Below are positions 9,000 through 60,728 of a stretch of 64,000 bases of DNA, one piece after another. Numbering within the stretch: the first letter of the stretch is position 1; each line of letters begins with the position of its first letter. The DNA is from Candidatus Omnitrophota bacterium. GTDB taxonomy: Bacteria; Omnitrophota; Gorgyraeia; Gygaellales; Profunditerraquicolaceae. The translations under genes and the position numbers were made by a program. The stretch spans positions 85,514-149,513 of the forward strand of contig JAQUOD010000001.1 of NCBI GenBank assembly GCA_028717245.1. Reading direction: 5' to 3'. Below the pieces are notes generated by a model. It saw only the letters and a program-made list of their open reading frames with translations, was not told where the DNA came from and ran no database searches.

Positions 9000-9362
9000 T
9001 TAAAACTCCATTCCGCCTTTTCTTAAGGCATCTGCAAACGCCTTGACTCTCCCGTGGTATAAATAACCCGCACGGTCAAAAACAATAGAATTGATGCCTT
9101 TTTCTTTAGCCTTTTTGGCAAAGACTTCGCCAAATAATTCCGCTGCCTTTAAATTTCCGGCAGAGGCGAATTTTTGCTTTATTTCTTTATCCAGCGTGGA
9201 TAGGGAAAACAAGGTCGCATTTTTTGTATCGTCTATAATCTGGGCATAGATATTTTTTAAGCTGCGGCGTAAAATTAAACGCGGCCTTTCTTTTGTGCCG
9301 GATAACAATAAACGTATACGCCGGTGCCTCTTCAATCTGGATAAATCTTTTTTCTTTTTCAT
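9000..9362 (-). CDS. rplR: 50S ribosomal protein L18
   Basis: 120 aa. Confidence 0.9.
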   Translation of the reverse strand: MKKKKDLSRLKRHRRIRLLLSGTKERPRLILRRSLKNIYAQIIDDTKNATLFSLSTLDKEIKQKFASAGNLKAAELFGEVFAKKAKEKGINSIVFDRAGYLYHGRVKAFADALRKGGMEF

Positions 9363-11504: not shown

Positions 11505-11541
11505 AATTACGAGTTACTAGTTACGAGCTTACGAGTTACTG
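11505..11541 (-). repeat. tandem heptamer array TTACGAG/TTACTAG x5 in rplN-rplX spacer
   Basis: aattacgag ttactag ttacgag c ttacgag ttactg. Confidence 0.8.
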
Positions 11542-28609: not shown

Positions 28610-28620
28610 ATTGTCTATCA

Positions 28621-28722
28621 GGTTACGTAAGGTTGCCTAAGGTTACGTAAGGTTCCATAAAGCTGCCTTTTTTAAGGTAACCTTATGTAACGTTATGGAA
28701 CCCCATGGAACGTTAGGTAACA
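28621..28722 (-). repeat. inverted arrays of 10-mers GGTTNNNTAA forming a ~45-bp imperfect hairpin in rplL-rpoB spacer
   Basis: ggttacgtaa ggttgcctaa ggttacgtaa ggttccataa ... ggtaacctta tgtaacgtta tggaacccca tggaacgtta ggtaac. Confidence 0.8.
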
Positions 28723-28729
28723 TTTCTTA

Positions 28730-29122
28730 TTATTTTAATTCTACCGTTGCCCCGGCGGCTTCCAATTTTTTCTTCATCTCCTCAGCCTCTTCCTTAGCTA
28801 CGTTTTCCTTTACGGGCTTGGGAGCTGCGTCTACTAAGTCCTTTGCTTCTTTTAGGCCGAGGCTGGTCATTGTCCTCACTTCTTTTATTACCGCAATCTT
28901 ATTGGCACCTGCGCTAGCCAAAACTACGGTAAAGGTACTTTTTTCTTCCGGCGCTGCGGCAGCGGCCCCTGCAGCAGCCCCCCCGGCAGCTGGTGCCGCC
29001 ATAATCGGCATATTCGCCTGCACGCCGAACTTCTCCTCCAAGGCCTTCACTAAATCCGATAGCTCTAATACGCTCATCTCCTCTATGGATTTAATCAGCC
29101 CTTCCATATTTTCTTTAGCCAT
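28730..29122 (-). CDS. rplL: 50S ribosomal protein L7/L12
   Basis: 130 aa. Confidence 0.9.
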
Positions 29123-29149
29123 TTTATGAACCTCCTTTTAGACAAGTTT

Positions 29150-29221
29150 GTATCAAAGTATCAGGTATCAAGGTATCAAAGTTTTTTCTTTGACACTTTT
29201 GACACATTGATACTTTGACAC
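29150..29221 (-). repeat. GTATCAA/TTGACAC inverted octamer arrays (hairpin, loop ttttttc) in rplJ-rplL spacer, directly upstream of rplL RBS
   Basis: gtatcaaagtatcaggtatcaaggtatcaaag-ttttttc-tttgacacttttgacacattgatactttgacac. Confidence 0.85.
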
Positions 29222-29225
29222 TATT

Positions 29226-29753
29226 TTAGTTTTCTTTCTTCTTCTTTATCTGCTCTAAACAATAAACTAATTTTCTTAAATTCCCCTTAAGAACCATTAC
29301 TAAACCAAAGATAGGTGATTTTAAAGCCATTACAGCCTGATATCTCAAAATTTCCTTACAGGGAAGCCGGGCCATCCTTTCGATATCTTTTTTATCCAGG
29401 ATCTTGTCTTCTAAAAATCCTGCTTCTAATTTTAACTGTTCATGCTCACGGAAAAAGCCATATAACACGCGCGAGGTATCTACTGGTTCTTCTTTGGCAA
29501 ATACTAAACCGCAGGGCCCCTCTACGGACTTAATTAAACCTTCTAAACCGGAGTCTTTCAGGGCGCGCCTGGCTACGCTATTTTTGGTCACGAAGAGCTT
29601 GGCCTTTGCGCCTTTTAGCGATTTCCTCAGGGTAGTCAGATCCGGACTGGATAATTTCGAATATCCCACGATAAAAAGGCCCTGCGATTCCTTAAAATAT
29701 TTTTTAAGGCGGTTTTCCAGAGTTTCCCTGAATACTAAACCCAGTTTTTTCAT
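29226..29753 (-). CDS. rplJ: 50S ribosomal protein L10
   Basis: 175 aa. Confidence 0.9.
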   Translation of the reverse strand: MKKLGLVFRETLENRLKKYFKESQGLFIVGYSKLSSPDLTTLRKSLKGAKAKLFVTKNSVARRALKDSGLEGLIKSVEGPCGLVFAKEEPVDTSRVLYGFFREHEQLKLEAGFLEDKILDKKDIERMARLPCKEILRYQAVMALKSPIFGLVMVLKGNLRKLVYCLEQIKKKKEN

Positions 29754-31807: not shown

Positions 31808-31957
31808 TCATTTTATCTCCTTGTGGAGGGTATGCTTATAACAGAATCTGCAGAACTTTTTTATCTCTAACTTATCCTGATGCAATTTTTTATTCTTAGT
31901 GGTGGTATAATTCCTATTTTTACAAACCGTGCATTCTAATGTAATAATTTCGCGCAT
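31808..31957 (-). CDS. rpmG: 50S ribosomal protein L33 (49 aa, C4 zinc ribbon), not in ORF track
   Basis: Manual translation [49 protein letters not shown]. Confidence 0.85.
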
Positions 31958-31963
31958 CTTTGT

Positions 31964-32035
31964 AGTGTCAAGGTGTCAAAGTATCAGAGTGTCAAAGTAA
32001 AACTTTGATACCTTGATACATGATACTTTGATACA
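31964..32035 (-). repeat. GTGTCAA/TTGATAC inverted octamer arrays (hairpin) between rpmG and tRNA-Thr
   Basis: gtgtcaaggtgtcaaagtatcagagtgtcaaag-taaaac-tttgataccttgatacatgatactttgatac. Confidence 0.85.
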
Positions 32036-32044
32036 GCTTTTACA

Positions 32045-32549: not shown

Positions 32550-33362
32550 CTATTCCACCTCTAAAACGGAACAGGTTTTAATGTTGGATAGATTGGCGAA
32601 ATCCTGAAGAGTAAGGTCTTCGGGCCGGATATTTCTATTGATCCCGTATTTTTCAAAAAATGCGGTTAGTTTCAAAACAGGGATAATGCCAGAAAGGCTG
32701 TTCCTTAAGGTTTTTCTCCTTTGGTTAAATGCCTTTCTGATAATGGTAAAAAATAACTTTTCATCTTTTAACCTGACAGCGCCTTCCTCCCTGACCTCTA
32801 GCTCTATAAAGCAGGAATCTACTTTGGGGGCGGGGAAAAAACTGTTCTTTTTAATAAAAAATAACGGCCTAGCGGCGCAATAATACTGCACATAGCAGCT
32901 AAAAGAGCCGTAGTCCTTTGAGCCGGCTTTAGCGGTTATCCTTTTAGCGAATTCCTTCTGGACGGTAATAAAGATGGATTCAATCTTATCGCGGTATTTT
33001 AAAAGATGCTCGATAATAGGCGTGGTAATATAATATGGGATATTTCCCACCACTTTTATTCTCCCCTTCACTTTCTTAAAATAATTCTTCAGGTTAAATT
33101 TCAGGATATCCCGGTTAATTATCCTTATATTTGCGTAATCCTTGGTACTATCCTTTAAAACCCTGCTTAAATCTGGATCTATCTCCAGCGCATAGATAAA
33201 GGCGCAATGCTGTCCTAGTAACCTGGTTAAATCGCCGTAACCCGAACCTATTTCTAATACATGGTCGCCTGCCCCTAATTGACAGGATACGGCTATCTTT
33301 CTCTGGATATTTTTATCTACCAGGAAATTCTGGCCTAATCTTTTTTTTGGTTTAAGGTACAT
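32550..33362 (-). CDS. rsmA: 16S rRNA (adenine1518/1519-N6)-dimethyltransferase
   Basis: KKRLGQNFLVD..., SAM motif LEIGSGYG. Confidence 0.9.
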   Translation of the reverse strand: MYLKPKKRLGQNFLVDKNIQRKIAVSCQLGAGDHVLEIGSGYGDLTRLLGQHCAFIYALEIDPDLSRVLKDSTKDYANIRIINRDILKFNLKNYFKKVKGRIKVVGNIPYYITTPIIEHLLKYRDKIESIFITVQKEFAKRITAKAGSKDYGSFSCYVQYYCAARPLFFIKKNSFFPAPKVDSCFIELEVREEGAVRLKDEKLFFTIIRKAFNQRRKTLRNSLSGIIPVLKLTAFFEKYGINRNIRPEDLTLQDFANLSNIKTCSVLEVE

Positions 33363-34300
33363 CTGTATGCGAGCATGGTTGCCTCAATTAATGATGCGGG
33401 ATTGGCCAACCGGTAGTTTTTTGCGATATCAAAGGCAGTCCCGTGTAAAGGAGATGTTCTGATAAAAGGAATGCCCAATGTCAAATTTACACCGCTAAAG
33501 CCGGCTGATACCTTCAAAGGGATTAATGCCTGGTCGTGATACATGGCAATCATGCAGTCGTATTGTTTTTGCAGTGTTTTTAAGGCTGCTATATCCGCCC
33601 CCTGCGGCCCGGCTATGCTTATGCCTTTTATTTTTTTTCTTAAAAGCGACAGAACAGGTTTAATCACCCTATTTTCTTCCTTTCCTATCAGCCCATTATC
33701 AGAGGCGTGCGGATTAAGCCCGCACAATACGATGCGCGGGTTTCTTGTACGGAAGAGTTTTTTTAAGGATTCATAAGTTAAAATTACGGTTTGAAATATT
33801 GCTTTTTTGCTTAAGCATAGGGGGACGTCTTTTAAAGCAATGTGGCGCGTAACCAGGGTGATTTTTAATTTTTTATTTAAAAGCATCATGGCAAAATTTT
33901 TCGTATTTGTAACAGAGGCCAAATATTCCGTATGCCCGCTGAAATTTTTAAACCCCGCCAAACTCACTGCCTCCTTGGATATAGGGCAGGTAACCAGAGA
34001 ATCTATCTTGTTATGATTAATTAAATCCATTGCCTTATCCAGGTATTCTATGGATGCCTTGCCATATTCAGCCCGCATTTCACCGAATCTAAAATTTTTA
34101 CGTGCTACATTATTTAAATCTATAAATTTTATATCTGACACCTGACACCTGGCACCTGACACCTGATTAAATACCCACCTATCTCCTATGATAACAAAAT
34201 CAGCCAAACCTCTTAATTGAGGTATTGCTTTAGCGATAATAGCAGGGCCTACACCCGCCGGGTCGCCTATGGTAATGCCGATTTTTATTTTATTATGCAT
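33335..34300 (-). CDS. pdxA: 4-hydroxythreonine-4-phosphate dehydrogenase
   Basis: IGITIGDPAGVGP..., HTEY, synteny surA-pdxA-rsmA. Confidence 0.9.
   Translation of the reverse strand: MHNKIKIGITIGDPAGVGPAIIAKAIPQLRGLADFVIIGDRWVFNQVSGARCQVSDIKFIDLNNVARKNFRFGEMRAEYGKASIEYLDKAMDLINHNKIDSLVTCPISKEAVSLAGFKNFSGHTEYLASVTNTKNFAMMLLNKKLKITLVTRHIALKDVPLCLSKKAIFQTVILTYESLKKLFRTRNPRIVLCGLNPHASDNGLIGKEENRVIKPVLSLLRKKIKGISIAGPQGADIAALKTLQKQYDCMIAMYHDQALIPLKVSAGFSGVNLTLGIPFIRTSPLHGTAFDIAKNYRLANPASLIEATMLAYRCTLNQKKD
34135..34165 (-). repeat. in-frame tandem heptamer tract CACCTGA/CACCTGG x4 inside pdxA (encodes periodic QVSGARCQVS)
   Basis: ctgacacctgacacctggcacctgacacctg. Confidence 0.8.
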
Positions 34301-34310
34301 TTATTTGTTT

Positions 34311-34392
34311 CCGTAATCCGTAATTGGTAATTCGTAATTCTTATTTTATTTTAAAAAATTACGATTTACGATTTATGAATTACGATTTACGG
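34311..34392 (-). repeat. inverted heptamer arrays CCGTAAT x4 / ATTTACG x5 (hairpin) in pdxA-surA spacer
   Basis: ccgtaatccgtaattggtaattcgtaatt ... aattacgatttacgatttatgaattacgatttacgg. Confidence 0.85.
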
Positions 34393-34417
34393 CTTTTAAA
34401 TTACTATTTACTAAAAG

Positions 34418-35365
34418 TTAATCTTGCATAATTTTAATATAAGACTGCTTTTTGAGTTCGTCCAACCACGTTGCTAATGCCTCTTGCATCTTTTGGTCAA
34501 AAAGGAAGGTATAAATATCACCCTGGGCCCCAGAGATACTTTGCTGCCGGGGGGGTATTATATTATCCAGTTTAAAAATATAATATTGTTCTTCTATTTT
34601 GACCGGTGCGGAGATTTCACCTACCTTCAACCTGAATATTTTTTCTTCGATGTCTTTTCTCAACTGCCCATTCCCTGCCCCGCTCATTTTATTTACAGCC
34701 AGGAAATATTTACTGGCGACATCCTGAAATTCCTGCCCATTCCTTAAATCATTAAAGACTTTGCTCGCCAGGTCCTCTTCACCGGTATTTATGGATTCAA
34801 ATTCGCGCTGTTCGGGTAGTTTAAATTTATCGATGTTTTGCTGATAGAAATCGGTGACTTCTGCGGGATTAACCAGAATCTTGCTCTTTATCTTTATTTC
34901 GATAATAGTATACATAAGCAGCTGGTCTCTTATCTTTGATTCTAAGTCTGCCTGCACCAGCCCTTGCTTAGCCAGGGAAGTTTGAAAATCCTTCTCTGAA
35001 TCGTAACGCCTGCGGATATCGTCTATCCTAGCTTTGATCCTGCTCTCGTCTATTCTGATATTGCTTTTTTTGGCTTCCTGTAAAATAATGCGGTCTTCAA
35101 TAAGCTTGTCCATTAAATCCAGCTTTATAGATTGCATTTTACTTTCCAGGCTTCTCCCTTTAAATTCTCCCATTAATTGTACGCGCGTAAAATTAACGAA
35201 GTCGTCTAAGTCTTTCTGGGTGATGACATCGTTATTCACGATAGCGACGATTTTGTCTTCGGCGTGTAAGTTGTAAGCTGTAAGTTGTAAGCTGTAAGCA
35301 ATGGAAAAAAGCAAAAATAATGATATTTTTAAACCCTTTAACCCTTGGTTTTTGATTTTATCCAT
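34418..35365 (-). CDS. surA: SurA-like periplasmic chaperone/peptidyl-prolyl isomerase (signal peptide, short form)
   Basis: 315 aa, N-terminal signal peptide; position upstream of pdxA-rsmA as in E. coli. Confidence 0.6.
   Translation of the reverse strand: MDKIKNQGLKGLKISLFLLFSIAYSLQLTAYNLHAEDKIVAIVNNDVITQKDLDDFVNFTRVQLMGEFKGRSLESKMQSIKLDLMDKLIEDRIILQEAKKSNIRIDESRIKARIDDIRRRYDSEKDFQTSLAKQGLVQADLESKIRDQLLMYTIIEIKIKSKILVNPAEVTDFYQQNIDKFKLPEQREFESINTGEEDLASKVFNDLRNGQEFQDVASKYFLAVNKMSGAGNGQLRKDIEEKIFRLKVGEISAPVKIEEQYYIFKLDNIIPPRQQSISGAQGDIYTFLFDQKMQEALATWLDELKKQSYIKIMQD
35264..35299 (-). repeat. in-frame tandem heptamer tract (C/T)TGTAAG x5 inside surA signal-peptide region (encodes AYSLQLTAYNLH)
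   Basis: gtgtaag ttgtaag ctgtaag ttgtaag ctgtaag c. Confidence 0.8.
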
Positions 35366-40034: not shown

Positions 40035-40062
40035 TTCGTTAGCCTCCTTTTTAGATACGTTT

Positions 40063-40125
40063 GTATCAAAGTGTCAGGTATCAGGGTATCAAAGTTTTTT
40101 CTTTGATACTTTGATACTTTGACAC
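40063..40125 (-). repeat. GTATCAA/TTGATAC inverted octamer arrays (hairpin, loop ttttttc), paralogue of the 29150-29221 element; abuts trpE stop and rpsP RBS
   Basis: gtatcaaagtgtcaggtatcagggtatcaaag-ttttttc-tttgatactttgatactttgacac. Confidence 0.85.
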
Positions 40126-41612
40126 TATTTAACAATTGCCTCTATTAATGCCTTTGCCTTGTTTATAGATTCCTGGTATTCATTTTTTGGCACCGAATCA
40201 GCGACGATACCGGCACCTGCCTGAATATATGCCATCCCATCTTTAATAATTACGGTCCGAAGGGTTATGCAGGTATCCATATTATGCGAAAAGCTGAAAT
40301 ACCCTACGCATCCGGCATAGGGCCCGCGCCTTAAATTTTCCAGCTCGTCTATAATTTCCATAGCGCGTATCTTAGGGCTGCCGCTTACTGTCCCGGCGGG
40401 AAAACAGGCCCTTAAAACATCGTAGATATTATATCTCTTATCCAAAATACCCTCAACTTCACTGACTATATGCATTACGTGGGAGTATCTTTCTATGGAC
40501 ATAAACTCACTCACCGCTACCTTGCCTTTTTTACAGACCTTGCCTAAATCATTCCTGCCTAAATCTACCAGCATCAGGTGTTCTGCGCGTTCTTTCTTAT
40601 CTTCAAGAAGCTCCTTTTCTAATTGCTTGTCTTCTTTTTCATTTTTCCCGCGGGGCCGGGTACCGGCAATAGGCCGGGTGCGGGCAATGCCGTCTTCACA
40701 GCGTACCAGTATCTCAGGAGAAGAGCCGACTAAGGTAACTTCCTTTAATTTCAAAAAAAACATATAGGGAGAAGGGTTCAGGCTCCTTAAATCCCTGTAG
40801 ATATCGAAGGGGTCTTTATCTATCTTTATTTCAAAGCGCTGCGACAATACTGTCTGGATGATATCCCCCTTTTTTATATAATCCCTCGCCTTATTTACTA
40901 TTTTACAAAATTCCTTTTCTTTAAAGTTAGAAATTACTTTTATGCTGCGCTTACCAGTATCATTACGCTTTGCTTTCTTGAGCAAGGGTTTCTTCAGTTC
41001 ATTGCATATGGAATCTATTTTTTTCAGCGCCTGATAATAAATCTGCGTTTTTTTAACCCGGGGGATTTTTTTATGCGCCGGCAGGATAATGTTAACAATG
41101 ATCTTTATGGTATGGTTAATATGGTCAAAGACTAGGATGCTATCGGTAAGTATAAAGACGGAATCGGCGATCTTTAGGTCATCCGGATTTCTATCGGGCA
41201 GGTCCTCAAAGAACCTTACCATATCATAAGCCATGAAACCCACGAGCCCTCCGTAAAAGCGCGGTAGTTCTTTAATCCGGGCGGCCTTAAAATCCTGCAT
41301 GATTTTTTTAATTTCATCCAGGGGGTCATTGCGGGTAACAAAATGCCTGGCTGAACTTCTTGCAGGATAAATGACCCGGACATCCCTGCCTTTACTTCTA
41401 AAAATAAGCGCGGGGTTACTCCCTAAGAAAGAATAGCGGGCGATCTTTTCCTGTCCTTCTACGGACTCAAGGAGAAAGGCATAATCGCCTTTTTTTATTT
41501 TTAAGAAGGCAGACACAGGCGTATCTAAATCCGCGCTGATCTCCTGATAAACCGGAATAAGATTATATTTTTTAGATAGTTCCAGAAATTCTTTTAGTGA
41601 TGGATAGTACAT
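40125..41612 (-). CDS. trpE: anthranilate synthase component I
   Basis: TPVSAFLKI, LLESVEGQEKIARYSF motif. Confidence 0.8.
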   Translation of the reverse strand: MYYPSLKEFLELSKKYNLIPVYQEISADLDTPVSAFLKIKKGDYAFLLESVEGQEKIARYSFLGSNPALIFRSKGRDVRVIYPARSSARHFVTRNDPLDEIKKIMQDFKAARIKELPRFYGGLVGFMAYDMVRFFEDLPDRNPDDLKIADSVFILTDSILVFDHINHTIKIIVNIILPAHKKIPRVKKTQIYYQALKKIDSICNELKKPLLKKAKRNDTGKRSIKVISNFKEKEFCKIVNKARDYIKKGDIIQTVLSQRFEIKIDKDPFDIYRDLRSLNPSPYMFFLKLKEVTLVGSSPEILVRCEDGIARTRPIAGTRPRGKNEKEDKQLEKELLEDKKERAEHLMLVDLGRNDLGKVCKKGKVAVSEFMSIERYSHVMHIVSEVEGILDKRYNIYDVLRACFPAGTVSGSPKIRAMEIIDELENLRRGPYAGCVGYFSFSHNMDTCITLRTVIIKDGMAYIQAGAGIVADSVPKNEYQESINKAKALIEAIVK

Positions 41613-42765: not shown

Positions 42766-42818
42766 GCTTTAAGTTGTAAGCTATAAGCTGTAAGCTTAAA
42801 GCATAAAGCTTATAGCTA
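42766..42818 (-). repeat. tandem heptamer array GCTNTAA x7; overlaps lipoprotein stop codon, 8 nt upstream of hisF start
   Basis: gctttaa gttgtaa gctataa gctgtaa gcttaaa gcataaa gcttata gcta. Confidence 0.85.
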
Positions 42819-44010: not shown

Positions 44011-44639
44011 AATTCTACAAAATTTTTCAGTATTTTTAAACCGGTTTCCTGGCTTTTCTCAGGATGAAACTGCACGCCGTATATATTCTCCCGCCAAAGA
44101 ACCGGGCTAAAGCTAATCCCGTATTCAGTAGTAGCAGCGATGATATCTTTATCCTTGGGTTGCGGATAATAGGAATGGCAGAAATATACGTAAGCATTAT
44201 CCGGTATATCTTTTAACAGGGGGCATTCCTTTGACACCTTGACACCCTGACACCTTGATACTATTTTCAACTGGTTCCAGCCCATATGCGGGACCTTCAA
44301 ATTGCCTTTAATTTTAAATTTCTTTACCTCGCCTTTTAATATCCCTAATCCTTTTATCCCTTTTGCTTCATCGCTTCTCTCAAAGAGAAGCTGCATCCCT
44401 AAACAGATACCCAGAAATATCTTTTTTGCCTTAATATGCTCCTTTAGCGCCGTCAACAGATCCTGTTTCTTTAATTCTGCTACAGCATCGGCGAATGCCC
44501 CTACCCCCGGCAATACTACCTTATCACAAACCTTGATATCTGCGGGCTTGTTGGTAACTATTGTCTTTGCGCCCATAGACTCTAAGGCCTTTTGCACGCT
44601 ATGAATATTTCCCATGCCGTAGTCAATTATGGCAATCAT
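44004..44639 (-). CDS. hisH: imidazole glycerol phosphate synthase glutaminase subunit
   Basis: MIAIIDYGMGNIHSV..., GICLGMQ, HSY. Confidence 0.9.
   Translation of the reverse strand: MIAIIDYGMGNIHSVQKALESMGAKTIVTNKPADIKVCDKVVLPGVGAFADAVAELKKQDLLTALKEHIKAKKIFLGICLGMQLLFERSDEAKGIKGLGILKGEVKKFKIKGNLKVPHMGWNQLKIVSRCQGVKVSKECPLLKDIPDNAYVYFCHSYYPQPKDKDIIAATTEYGISFSPVLWRENIYGVQFHPEKSQETGLKILKNFVELC
44229..44262 (-). repeat. in-frame octamer tract TTGACACC x3 inside hisH (encodes SRCQGVKVSKE; about 9-aa insertion relative to HisH homologs)
   Basis: ctttgacaccttgacaccctgacaccttgatactatttt. Confidence 0.8.
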
Positions 44640-46482: not shown

Positions 46483-49097
46483 TTTAGTTCCCTGATAATC
46501 TCTTTAAGTTTCTTGAATGCCTGCGGAAAATTCTCCGGTTTATTTCCCCCTGCCTGGGCAAAATCCTTCCTGCCTCCGCCGCTACCGCCGATTTCCGGGG
46601 CGATTGCTTTTATTATCTTAGCGCTATCAATATCTAAAATTTGCGTATTTAAATTTGTACCCGTAACCAACAGGGCCCCTCCAACGGAAGTAGTTGTCCC
46701 TAAGGCAACGATAACGCTTTTTTCCTTCGCTTTGATTAAATCCACGGCCTTTCTTAAGGCGTCCATATCCTGGCCTTCAATAAAACGGGCGATAACATTA
46801 ATACCGTTAATAATTTCTCCCTCTTTAATATAATTATCTATTGAGGCTCTAAGCATATCCGTCTTGCGGTAACTTAGCTTTTTTTCCAGTTCTTTTATCT
46901 GAAATAGCTTCTTCTCTAATTCCTGGGTTATCTTTTGGCTAGGGACATTTAAAAGAGAAGAAATATCAGCCAGGATATTCTCTTCTTCCTTAAGCGCCTT
47001 ATAGGCACAATCTCCTGTAAGCGCTTCTATCCTTCTTATCCCGCTGGCTATCGACCCCTCGTTAACTATCTTAAAGAGCCCGATTTGGCCGGTGCATTCA
47101 AGGTGTGTTCCGCCGCAGAGTTCTTTAGAGAAATCTCCGATTGCTACCATACGCACCTTTTCTGCGTATTTCTCCGTAAAGAATGCCAATGCCCCTTGTC
47201 TTTTAGCCTCTGCGAGGGTCAGCGTCTTTGCCTTCAAGCACGTATTATTTACTATGTAGTTATTGACTAATCCTTCTATTCTATCCAACTGTTCCCTAGT
47301 CACATCCTTAAAATGCGTAAAGTCAAAACGTAATCTATCTTCGGCTACTAATGAACCTTGCTGTTGCACATGCGCTCCCAAAATTACGCGTAATGCTGCC
47401 TGCAATAGGTGTGTGGCAGTATGATTTCTGGCTATGGATAGCCTGCGTTTAATATCCACACAGGACATTAACTCATCTGTGGTTCTAAAACTTCCGGTTT
47501 TTACCCTTCCTTTATGCACAATAACATTATCAAATTTACGGGTACCGGTTATCTGAAAGACATTCTTCCCTTTTATCAATTCACCCGTATCGCCTACCTG
47601 GCCGCCGGATTCAGGGTAAAGAACGGTTTTATCTAAAATTATCCGGGCCTCTTCGCCCGCGCTTATTTTTTTTACCGGAGTATTATCTTTAATAATCTTG
47701 ATAACCTTTGCCTTTGTCTCGTATTTGGAGTAACCCAGAAAACTAGTCTTAGCGCCTGCTAAATGCAATTCTTTAATATCAAAGACATCGCCTTTCATCC
47801 GACTCTGTAATTTAGAACGGTTTTTCTGCTCTCCTAATTCCTTATCAAATGCCTCCTGCGAGAAATTTATGCCGGCTTTCTCCAGCCAACCCCTGGTTAA
47901 CTCTAAAGGTATCCCGTAGGTATCGTACAACTGAAAGGCAAGCCTGCCGGCCCTTTGCGCGTCCTGCTTATTACTAAAACCCTTAAATTTTTCTTCAAAC
48001 AAAACGCTGCTAGAATCTAAAGTAGAAATAAAATTATTCTCTTCAGCCAGAATAATCTGGGAGATATTTTCTTTACGTTTATCCAACTCTGGATATGGCA
48101 ACTTCATAATATCGGATAAAAGAGGGGTTAATTTATAAAGAAAAGGTTTAGCTATCCCTAACGCCCTTAAATGCAGCATGCTTTTACGGATTATTTTTCT
48201 TACTACATACCCGCGGCCTTCATTAGAAGGCAATACGCCATCATAAATAGCAAAAACAATGGCACGTATATGGTCACTAACAGCATAAATAAATTCCTTA
48301 TCTGACACTTTGACACTTTGACACTTTGACACTATCTCTTTCACTATGGGTTGGAATAAATCCGTTTCAAAATTATTCGGCACCCCCTGCATAACCGCTG
48401 CCAATCTTTCCAGCCCCATACCCGTGTCAATATTCTTTTTGGGTAAAGGTTCTAATTTTCCGTCTGCTTTGCGGTTAAATTGTGTAAACACTAAATTCCA
48501 TATTTCCGGGAACCTGCCGCAACTGCAAGCCGGGCCGCAGCCAGGCTTCCCGCAACCTGCGCCCTGGTCAAAGAATATCTCAGAACATGGCCCGCATGGC
48601 CCATTTGGGCCGTTAGCTTTGGCTTCTGATGGCCAGAAATTTTCTTTATCGCCTAATTTTACGATTTTATTTACCGGAACCTTTATTTTATCTTTCCATA
48701 TGTTATACGATTCATCATCGTCTTTATATACAGAAACCCAGAGTTTATCTTCTTTAATCTTAAGCTCTTCGGTCAGGAACTCCCACGCCCAGGTAATTGC
48801 CTCTTCCTTAAAATAGTCCCCGAAAGAAAAATTTCCCAGCATCTCAAAAAAGGTATGGTGAGACGGGGTCTTGCCTACCTTATCTAAATCATCGGTGCGC
48901 AGGCAGCGCTGGCTGCTGGCAGCGCGGCTAAAACCGGTTAAATGCCCCAGGAATTGCCTCTTGAATTGGTTCATTCCGGCAGGAGTAAATAATACGGTAG
49001 GGTCGTCCTTGGGGATAAGCGAATCGCTTTCTACGATTTTATGCTTTTTAGCTTTAAAAAAGATGGGGAATTTTTCTCTTAATAAATCCGCTTTCAT
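46479..49097 (-). CDS. alaS: alanine--tRNA ligase
   Basis: start MKADLLREKF at 49097 overlapping recX stop (ATGA..TAA); ORF-track start 49154 is an extension. Confidence 0.9.
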   Translation of the reverse strand: MKADLLREKFPIFFKAKKHKIVESDSLIPKDDPTVLFTPAGMNQFKRQFLGHLTGFSRAASSQRCLRTDDLDKVGKTPSHHTFFEMLGNFSFGDYFKEEAITWAWEFLTEELKIKEDKLWVSVYKDDDESYNIWKDKIKVPVNKIVKLGDKENFWPSEAKANGPNGPCGPCSEIFFDQGAGCGKPGCGPACSCGRFPEIWNLVFTQFNRKADGKLEPLPKKNIDTGMGLERLAAVMQGVPNNFETDLFQPIVKEIVSKCQSVKVSDKEFIYAVSDHIRAIVFAIYDGVLPSNEGRGYVVRKIIRKSMLHLRALGIAKPFLYKLTPLLSDIMKLPYPELDKRKENISQIILAEENNFISTLDSSSVLFEEKFKGFSNKQDAQRAGRLAFQLYDTYGIPLELTRGWLEKAGINFSQEAFDKELGEQKNRSKLQSRMKGDVFDIKELHLAGAKTSFLGYSKYETKAKVIKIIKDNTPVKKISAGEEARIILDKTVLYPESGGQVGDTGELIKGKNVFQITGTRKFDNVIVHKGRVKTGSFRTTDELMSCVDIKRRLSIARNHTATHLLQAALRVILGAHVQQQGSLVAEDRLRFDFTHFKDVTREQLDRIEGLVNNYIVNNTCLKAKTLTLAEAKRQGALAFFTEKYAEKVRMVAIGDFSKELCGGTHLECTGQIGLFKIVNEGSIASGIRRIEALTGDCAYKALKEEENILADISSLLNVPSQKITQELEKKLFQIKELEKKLSYRKTDMLRASIDNYIKEGEIINGINVIARFIEGQDMDALRKAVDLIKAKEKSVIVALGTTTSVGGALLVTGTNLNTQILDIDSAKIIKAIAPEIGGSGGGRKDFAQAGGNKPENFPQAFKKLKEIIRELK
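48302..48333 (-). repeat. in-frame octamer tract TTGACACT x4 inside alaS (encodes SKCQSVKVSDKE)
   Basis: ctgacactttgacactttgacactttgacact. Confidence 0.8.
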
Positions 49098-58643: not shown

Positions 58644-58702
58644 GGCACCTGGTGCAAATTCAATCGGGTACCTGGTGCGAATTTAAGATTGTACCTGTCC
58701 CC
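58644..58702 (-). repeat. 57-nt element copy A (two CACCTGGTGC palindromes 23 nt apart) in etfB-etfA spacer
   Basis: ggcacctggtgcaaattcaatcgggtacctggtgcgaatttaagattgtacctgtccc; about 90% identical to 60671-60728. Confidence 0.8.
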
Positions 58703-60670: not shown

Positions 60671-60728
60671 AACACCTGGTGCAAAGTCAATCGGGCACCT
60701 GGTGCGAAACTAATCTTGTACCTGTCCC
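60671..60728 (-). repeat. 57-nt element copy B in the 5'UTR of the acyl-CoA dehydrogenase gene, between predicted promoter and RBS
   Basis: aacacctggtgcaaagtcaatcgggcacctggtgcgaaactaatcttgtacctgtccc. Confidence 0.8.

Follow-up and report, generated by a model that had tools for sequence, protein, structure and literature searches.

What is a tandem repeat with a seven-nucleotide unit doing, in frame, inside a gene of vitamin-B6 biosynthesis? Repeat-driven ON/OFF switching is textbook knowledge for the surface genes of pathogens, and slipped-strand mispairing is the accepted mechanism for SSR contingency loci. The window, as the whole analyzed stretch of 64,000 nucleotides is called here, comes from a Candidatus Omnitrophota bacterium, and its tract lies near the 5' end of pdxA. 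A preliminary description made from the letters alone had left two origins side by side: a contingency-like slippage site in an unexpected gene, or an exapted fragment of a dispersed element. Choosing between these, and weighing readings that neither covers, requires the tract itself, its counterparts in related species, and the other arrays of the same genome.

The tract and its host protein

The features concerned are the following.

33335..34300, minus strand: pdxA coding sequence, 321 aa, 4-hydroxythreonine-4-phosphate dehydrogenase (Pfam PF04166, E = 1.3e-87)
34135..34166, minus strand: heptamer array, sense TCAGGTG x4.6, PdxA residues 45-56 (NQVSGARCQVSD), in the in-frame (ON) state
32550..33362, minus strand: ksgA/rsmA (from Pfam RrnaAD and the ORF coordinates)

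Direct reading of 34135-34166 gives CTGACAC CTGACAC CTGGCAC CTGACAC CTGA, in sense TCAGGTG TCAGGTG CCAGGTG TCAGGTG TCAG, with two imperfections: unit 3 is interrupted by a single A>G change, and the fifth unit is degenerate. Tandem Repeats Finder reports a period of 7, 4.6 copies, 92% matches and a score of 57, and an independent scan concurs. The tract had been described as CACCTGA x4; that register spans 34139-34166 and denotes the same tract as CTGACAC x4.6, whose reality and in-frame position in pdxA are confirmed by direct reading, both repeat searches and Pfam. It encodes N-QVSGARCQVS-D at PdxA residues 45-56, in the only stop-free orientation possible within a coding sequence, since CACCTGA holds a TGA when read in three frames. 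NCBI lists a protein with 100% identity to the window PdxA, encoded on a 374-kb contig of a 'Candidatus Omnitrophica bacterium' MAG. This species has two assemblies, the window and Logan contig L001, which do not differ in 1971 nt.

As in SSR contingency loci, short near-identical units lie inside an ORF and their length is not a multiple of three. Simulation on the window allele bears out the expectation that gain or loss of one unit would shift the frame: a change of one or two units in either direction yields products of 54-65 residues, and a change of three keeps the frame. The start of ksgA overlaps the 3' end of pdxA by 28 nt, identically in relatives, so a premature pdxA stop could affect ksgA too.

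The array does not lengthen the protein. The spacing from IGD to FIDLNNV is 18 residues in the window PdxA, equal to that of homologues without the array, these length controls being PdxA proteins from metagenome contigs at no more than 59% identity, mostly without a clean array. A scan of genome contigs with PdxA returned distant relatives only (39-45% identical; Nitrospirae and others), none with an array. In solved PdxA-family proteins the segment is longer than in the window and aligns poorly. An AF2 model of PdxA (mean pLDDT 87) assigns the array to the end of helix 41-51 and to loop 52-57; confidence in the N-terminal half is lowest in the array segment, where residues 50-52 fall below a pLDDT of 50. 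The variability that had been expected after the VIIGD motif is thus seen in the homologue alignment, in the comparison with solved structures and in the model. The site is therefore no insertion; it is a variable helix end and loop of normal length, which the model places in a permissive surface segment of PdxA.

Length variants and clade-wide persistence

If the array slips, related genomes should contain alleles that differ by whole units. Candidates were PdxA proteins of 258-271 residues, on long contigs in 90%-identity clusters, that start in or just past the array; the evidence consists of assembled contigs. Three related species yielded such alleles. In species A, two contigs (L087 from JGI and L088 from ENA) carry five units and an intact PdxA of 322 residues, and two from other assemblies (L093 and L097) carry three units, a loss of 14 nt that splits the gene. 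In L097 a called N-terminal ORF of 61 residues is followed by one of 258; in L093 the N-terminal frame ends just past the array, and the sole called ORF has 271 residues. Over 6747 nt L087 and L093 show no mismatch, and only two length differences separate them: the pdxA array accounts for 14 nt and a 45-nt repeat of ksgA for 90 nt. L088 and L097 show 2 mismatches over 18316 nt; the same two sites again differ by 14 and 90 nt, and further indels affect a poly-A run (1 nt) and the array of the neighboring gene surA (7 nt). In species B, three contigs (L094, L095 and L096) have five units, and L092, a contig of 82 kb, has four and a split gene; one 7-nt unit is the sole difference between L094 and L092 in 6798 nt, with no mismatch. 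In species C, the NCBI MAG contig L098 has CCAGGTG x4 and a split pdxA, its cluster mates being in frame. Across the four split alleles (L092, L093, L097 and L098) the ORFs measure 56-61 aa plus 258-271 aa, and in species A and B the five-unit contigs are otherwise 99.99-100% identical to those with three or four units.

The ksgA repeat is a second hypervariable repeat in the pdxA operon. In species A, ksgA/rsmA contains a 45-nt in-frame tandem repeat (L087, about 9040-9130) that the window ksgA lacks; its copy number differs among otherwise identical contigs, with products of 388, 373, 358 and 343 aa.

The suggestion of a contingency-like slippage site is thus borne out in relatives, where three- or four-unit alleles split pdxA. 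In-frame alleles of two or eight units were not seen among the relatives' contigs. Perfect arrays, those of pdxA and surA, varied between near-identical contigs, and imperfect intergenic arrays on the same contigs stayed constant. With length changes at about 1e-4 substitutions per site or less, the per-array rate would be, as a rough estimate from sequence comparison, 10^3-10^4 times the per-site substitution rate.

How old is the site? The 120 best PdxA homologues, 59-71% identical excluding the query's own record and with Omnitrophica/Omnitrophota as their named sources, were aligned with the window protein. Most of them have, exactly at the array position, an 11-residue peptide with a 7-residue period whose sequence is lineage-specific; examples are QVSGVRCQVSG, IPNPKSQIPN, QLSAISYQLSA, KVQSSKFKVQS and KNQKSKIKNQN. 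When each peptide is compared with the three-frame translation of every stop-free heptamer, a pure heptamer fits at least 9 of 11 residues in 56 of the 120 homologues and all 11 in 16; control windows elsewhere in those PdxA proteins never exceed 8 of 11 (n = 2828). The other 64 have decayed arrays, with a fit of 8 of 11 or less. At the DNA level, four relatives that share the synteny trpE-rpsP-yajC-secDF-mfd-surA-pdxA-ksgA have pdxA arrays of TCAGGTG x5.1, ATCAGGT x5.3, AAAGTTC x4.4 and CAGCTAT x4.7, each 100% pure. The preliminary description had held that the same peptide in unrelated PdxA sequences would speak against a slippage site. The peptide does recur in related PdxA, but as a test this is misleading, because it is the DNA array itself that is conserved.

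Could the protein be what keeps the repeat? That PdxA needs a 7-residue peptide repeat is barely credible: the in-frame length is indeed constant across homologues, but the lineage peptides (QVSGVRC, IPNPKSQ, QLSAISY, KVQSSKF and others) are unrelated and have only their heptamer three-frame origin in common, the segment they occupy is the lowest-confidence part of the N-terminal half of the model, and in the relatives' DNA the units are identical within an array, even at positions that fall third in a codon in some of the units. Since protein selection cannot account for such identity, the homogenization must act on the DNA.

Together, these observations suggest, with a probability of about three in four, that the tract is a hypermutable heptanucleotide SSR in a permissive segment of PdxA, acting as a slippage frameshift switch that is ON with five units and OFF with three or four. 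Slipped-strand mispairing would add or remove whole 7-nt units; five units would be read through, and three or four would bring a stop after about 55-65 residues. Seven not being a multiple of three, only one copy-number class, that of five units, reads through. Unit turnover would at the same time homogenize the units, a form of concerted evolution, so that the array could be kept at one site and one in-frame length across the clade while its unit sequence drifts. That slippage causes the changes in unit number, and that they are reversible, we infer from the assembled alleles. The window's own allele, which is ON, may still be switching; its interruption and decayed fifth unit probably make it less prone to mutation than the perfect tracts of relatives, so that it would switch more slowly.

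Slippage may not act alone. L099 and L100 have flanks that are 97-100% identical around a hyper-divergent patch of about 110 nt (about 60% identity), which takes in the array and a further stretch of roughly 50 nt on its downstream side in pdxA, and unit number is not what differs; recombination or local, repeat-associated mutagenesis therefore appears to reshape the array as well. A wholesale rewriting of arrays at more than the neutral pace was also considered; it is weakened by this one close pair, in which the divergence spans the whole patch of about 110 nt.

Arrays elsewhere and the competing explanations

Arrays of about 32 nt with units of 7-10 nt form a population across the genome, to which the pdxA tract belongs. 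Counting arrays with a period of 6-10, at least three copies and a Tandem Repeats Finder score of at least 40, the window holds 15; 100 shuffles that preserve dinucleotides give 0.03 on average and 1 at most. The units of 7, 8 or 10 nt fall into at least three loose families, and further units occur in relatives. Total array length is nearly constant in the window and its relatives for units of 6 to 10 nt, at 26-45 nt (median 33), a range whose lower bound is partly a detection limit and beyond which no longer arrays occur. The arrays outside pdxA include these.

35265..35299, minus strand: surA heptamer array, sense GCTTACA x5, in the signal-peptide region (AYSLQLTAYNLH)
48301..48338, minus strand: alaS octamer array, sense AGTGTCAA x4, 100% pure, in frame (EIVSKCQSVKVSD, residues 273-285)
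44231..44261, minus strand: octamer array in a hisH-like class-I glutamine amidotransferase gene, sense GGTGTCAA x3.5-3.9, in frame (VSRCQGVKVSK, residues 127-137)
34312..34391, no strand assigned: inverted heptamer arrays CGTAATT x4.1 and TTACGAT x4.7 in the surA-pdxA spacer, a long hairpin
29150..29222, no strand assigned: inverted octamer arrays GTATCAAA x4.2 and CTTTGACA x4.2 between the rplJ and rplL positions, a hairpin of about 30 bp
31964..32034, no strand assigned: inverted octamer arrays AGTGTCAA x4.4 and TTGATACC x3.9 adjoining a tRNA gene
28620..28721, no strand assigned: inverted decamer arrays in the rplL-rpoB spacer
40060..40135, no strand assigned: octamer-array hairpin directly past the trpE stop codon
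41644..41671, no strand assigned: AAGCTTA x4 array at the junction of a PRA-CH (hisI-like) gene and trpE
42766..42817, no strand assigned: adjoining GCTGTAA and AAGCTTA arrays in an intergenic spacer
11507..11539, no strand assigned: TTACGAG x4.6 array between two ribosomal-protein ORFs

Of the arrays in genes, that of surA is conserved in position in relatives, with other units, and differs by one unit between near-identical contigs of species A. The surA array of species A, TGCCATA (L087 6822-6852; L088 6574-6604), which carries the one-unit difference between L088 and L097, overlaps the start codon, and since every unit holds an ATG, surA keeps an in-frame ATG whatever the copy number. The AlaS loop has arrays with units of 7 or 8 nt, various in sequence, in 18 of 86 homologues. 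As a control in an essential gene, members of array-bearing AlaS clusters were examined; in this small sample one gene is split, and its break, near residue 505, lies away from the array at residues 253-285.

The intergenic arrays are usually inverted pairs at operon junctions that form hairpins of about 30 bp (-23 to -38 kcal/mol), some of them conserved in place in relatives; at the rplJ-rplL site, species A has the same units GTATCAAA/CTTTGACA at the same place. Segments that form hairpins with stems of tandem 7-10-mers lie at 29140-29228, 31955-32042, 40060-40135, 28612-28730 and 34301-34417. The pattern of G·U pairs favors the sense RNA at rplJ-rplL (-36.3 vs -27.4 kcal/mol) and the opposite strand beside the tRNA gene (-38.1 vs -23.2 kcal/mol), and across the hairpins this asymmetry points to no consistent strand. 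For the arrays of pdxA, surA, alaS and hisH, neither a complementary partner nor a local RNA structure was found, only the intergenic pairs folding, and Rfam at gathering thresholds finds two tRNAs and nothing else in the whole window.

Such a population offers the switch reading its most serious competitor, namely that the window tract is a frozen relic, an odd loop-coding sequence, and that the OFF alleles of relatives are ordinary deleterious or neutral losses of function at a mutational hazard. The tract is only 92% pure, its last unit is degenerate and its two assemblies are identical; 64 of 120 homologues have decayed arrays; and arrays are a genome-wide trait, a similar one lying in the essential alaS, where switching cannot help. 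However, no other array persists as well as that of pdxA, which is perfect in L090 and L094 although the homologous regions there hold almost no other arrays. Natural OFF alleles moreover dominate some samples: assembly gave the OFF form in several samples, from three species. The tract also sits close to the 5' end of pdxA, like classical translational switches. Persistence, 5' position and assembled OFF alleles argue for something more than a tolerated hazard, and we regard the relic as rather unlikely.

Is the switch, then, an adaptation? It is conceivable, though doubtful, that the pdxA array is a selected bet-hedging device that toggles reversibly between vitamin-B6 prototrophy and auxotrophy, possibly with polarity on ksgA, and that second-order selection has kept it across the clade despite the drift of its units. 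Against this adaptive reading stand the occurrence of arrays in alaS and the fact that PdxA is a housekeeping enzyme. Were the switching selected, cells could become auxotrophic, and so dependent on the vitamins of a community or host, in a way that is both heritable and reversible, and the array would provide a concrete marker, countable in reads, for studying vitamin dependence in situ; if bet-hedging is true, an environmental bacterium, free-living or host-dependent, would have a contingency locus that governs a metabolic public good. Even if the array is only tolerated, the clade carries hundreds of hypermutable arrays with 7-10-nt units, some of them in essential genes; a split gene in one of its MAGs need not be an error or a pseudogene but can represent a phase state; and a microsatellite coding for a loop can persist over long evolutionary times through concerted evolution.

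A different possibility is that the periodicity works in nucleic acid, for example as a platform on which an oligomeric protein binds RNA or DNA, or through pairing in trans between complementary arrays, with copy-number change being incidental. The clustering of array length at 26-45 nt (median 33) whatever the period would suit this idea, as would the GTGTCA core common to pdxA, alaS, hisH and several intergenic hairpin arms and the hairpins of about 30 bp at conserved operon junctions. However, the detection threshold partly determines the lower bound of that length distribution, units that vary by locus and lineage do not suit any one sequence-specific reader, and the pdxA array has no nearby complementary partner, predicted structure or Rfam match. 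We consider such a function improbable.

Two other kinds of small element were noted. A 56-nt element occurs in two copies, at 58646-58701 and 60673-60728 (89% identical), each with a pair of CACCTGGTGC palindromes at a distance of 23 nt. On the minus strand the copies lie upstream of two acyl-CoA-dehydrogenase-like genes, and they look like an operator or promoter region common to both. The GC-rich CCTGCCTGCCGG(C/A)AGGCAGG looks like a very small mobile palindrome. It sits at different spots in the surA-pdxA spacer of L099 and L100, is present in three PdxA homologues (P0078, P0115 and P0105) and in an AlaS (P0257), and in some homologues lies in frame within array-coding loops, reading ..PACRTGR.. 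or ..PACRQAG...

That the tract was exapted from a mobile or dispersed element, for instance as a piece of the CACCTGGTGC-bearing one close to the acyl-CoA dehydrogenase genes, is highly improbable. The kinship that had been proposed between the two comes down to the hexamer CACCTG, all that they have in common, and the insertion of a different element, the mini-palindrome, in frame into the PdxA loop of some homologues gives the idea a measure of precedent. Yet there is no net insertion at the site relative to homologues without the array, the CACCTGACACCTGA 14-mer searched across the window with up to two mismatches matches only inside the pdxA tract, and the site is conserved while its unit sequence changes between lineages.

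Known repeat systems

A literature search on Omnitrophota and tandem repeats found nothing relevant and no prior description. Judged by the alleles of its relatives, the pdxA tract appears to behave like an SSR contingency locus, but one placed in a housekeeping gene of an uncultivated environmental phylum, and several known systems share parts of this picture.

REP/BIME-type repeats are intergenic hairpin repeats. The intergenic Omnitrophota arrays resemble them as long hairpins at operon junctions, but here the stems consist of tandem units of 7-10 nt that are specific to each locus, and the pdxA tract is a single arm without a partner.

Long heptameric SSRs are over-represented in cyanobacteria, Xanthomonas and Beggiatoaceae, as STRR, GGGAATC / GGGGA(T/C)T and TAACTGA direct repeats, and they show inverted pairs and positional conservation with variation in sequence and length (PMC4692102, PMC4679880). 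The Omnitrophota arrays are like them in that heptamer arrays occur far above chance, lie mostly between genes and in some cases form inverted pairs able to fold into stem-loops. Unlike STRR-type genomes, in which one unit dominates, each Omnitrophota locus has its own unit of 7, 8, 9 or 10 nt, in loose families; the arrays are also short and uniform (about 32 nt), and several lie in frame inside conserved or essential genes.

In Staphylococcus aureus, SSRs are described as length-dependent switches that turn non-surface genes off and back on (bioRxiv 10.1101/2025.07.08.663602). The pdxA tract is like this loss of function in being an SSR in a non-surface gene; the abstract of that preprint contains no counterpart to a heptamer site kept across a clade.

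The nearest parallel is Haemophilus influenzae, where heptanucleotide tracts lie inside ORFs, such as (AATTTTG)14 in hmw1A and (AACAACC)8-13 in the HI1369 homologue, and where heptamer contingency tracts of 8-38 units differ in unit number among close strains, truncating the ORF (PMC2651432). A 7-nt unit within an ORF, a unit number that varies among close strains and truncation by frameshift are common to both. The differences are as clear. The pdxA tract has 3-5 units against 8-38, and its host is an uncultivated environmental Omnitrophota rather than a host-adapted pathogen. The H. influenzae loci encode surface, iron-uptake and restriction-modification functions, whereas PdxA is a housekeeping enzyme of vitamin-B6 biosynthesis; contingency loci are expected in genes for variable environments or host interaction, and a biosynthetic enzyme does not answer to that description. 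Finally, unlike in H. influenzae, the pdxA site is conserved across a clade of about 60-70% protein identity, while the sequence of its unit has turned over.
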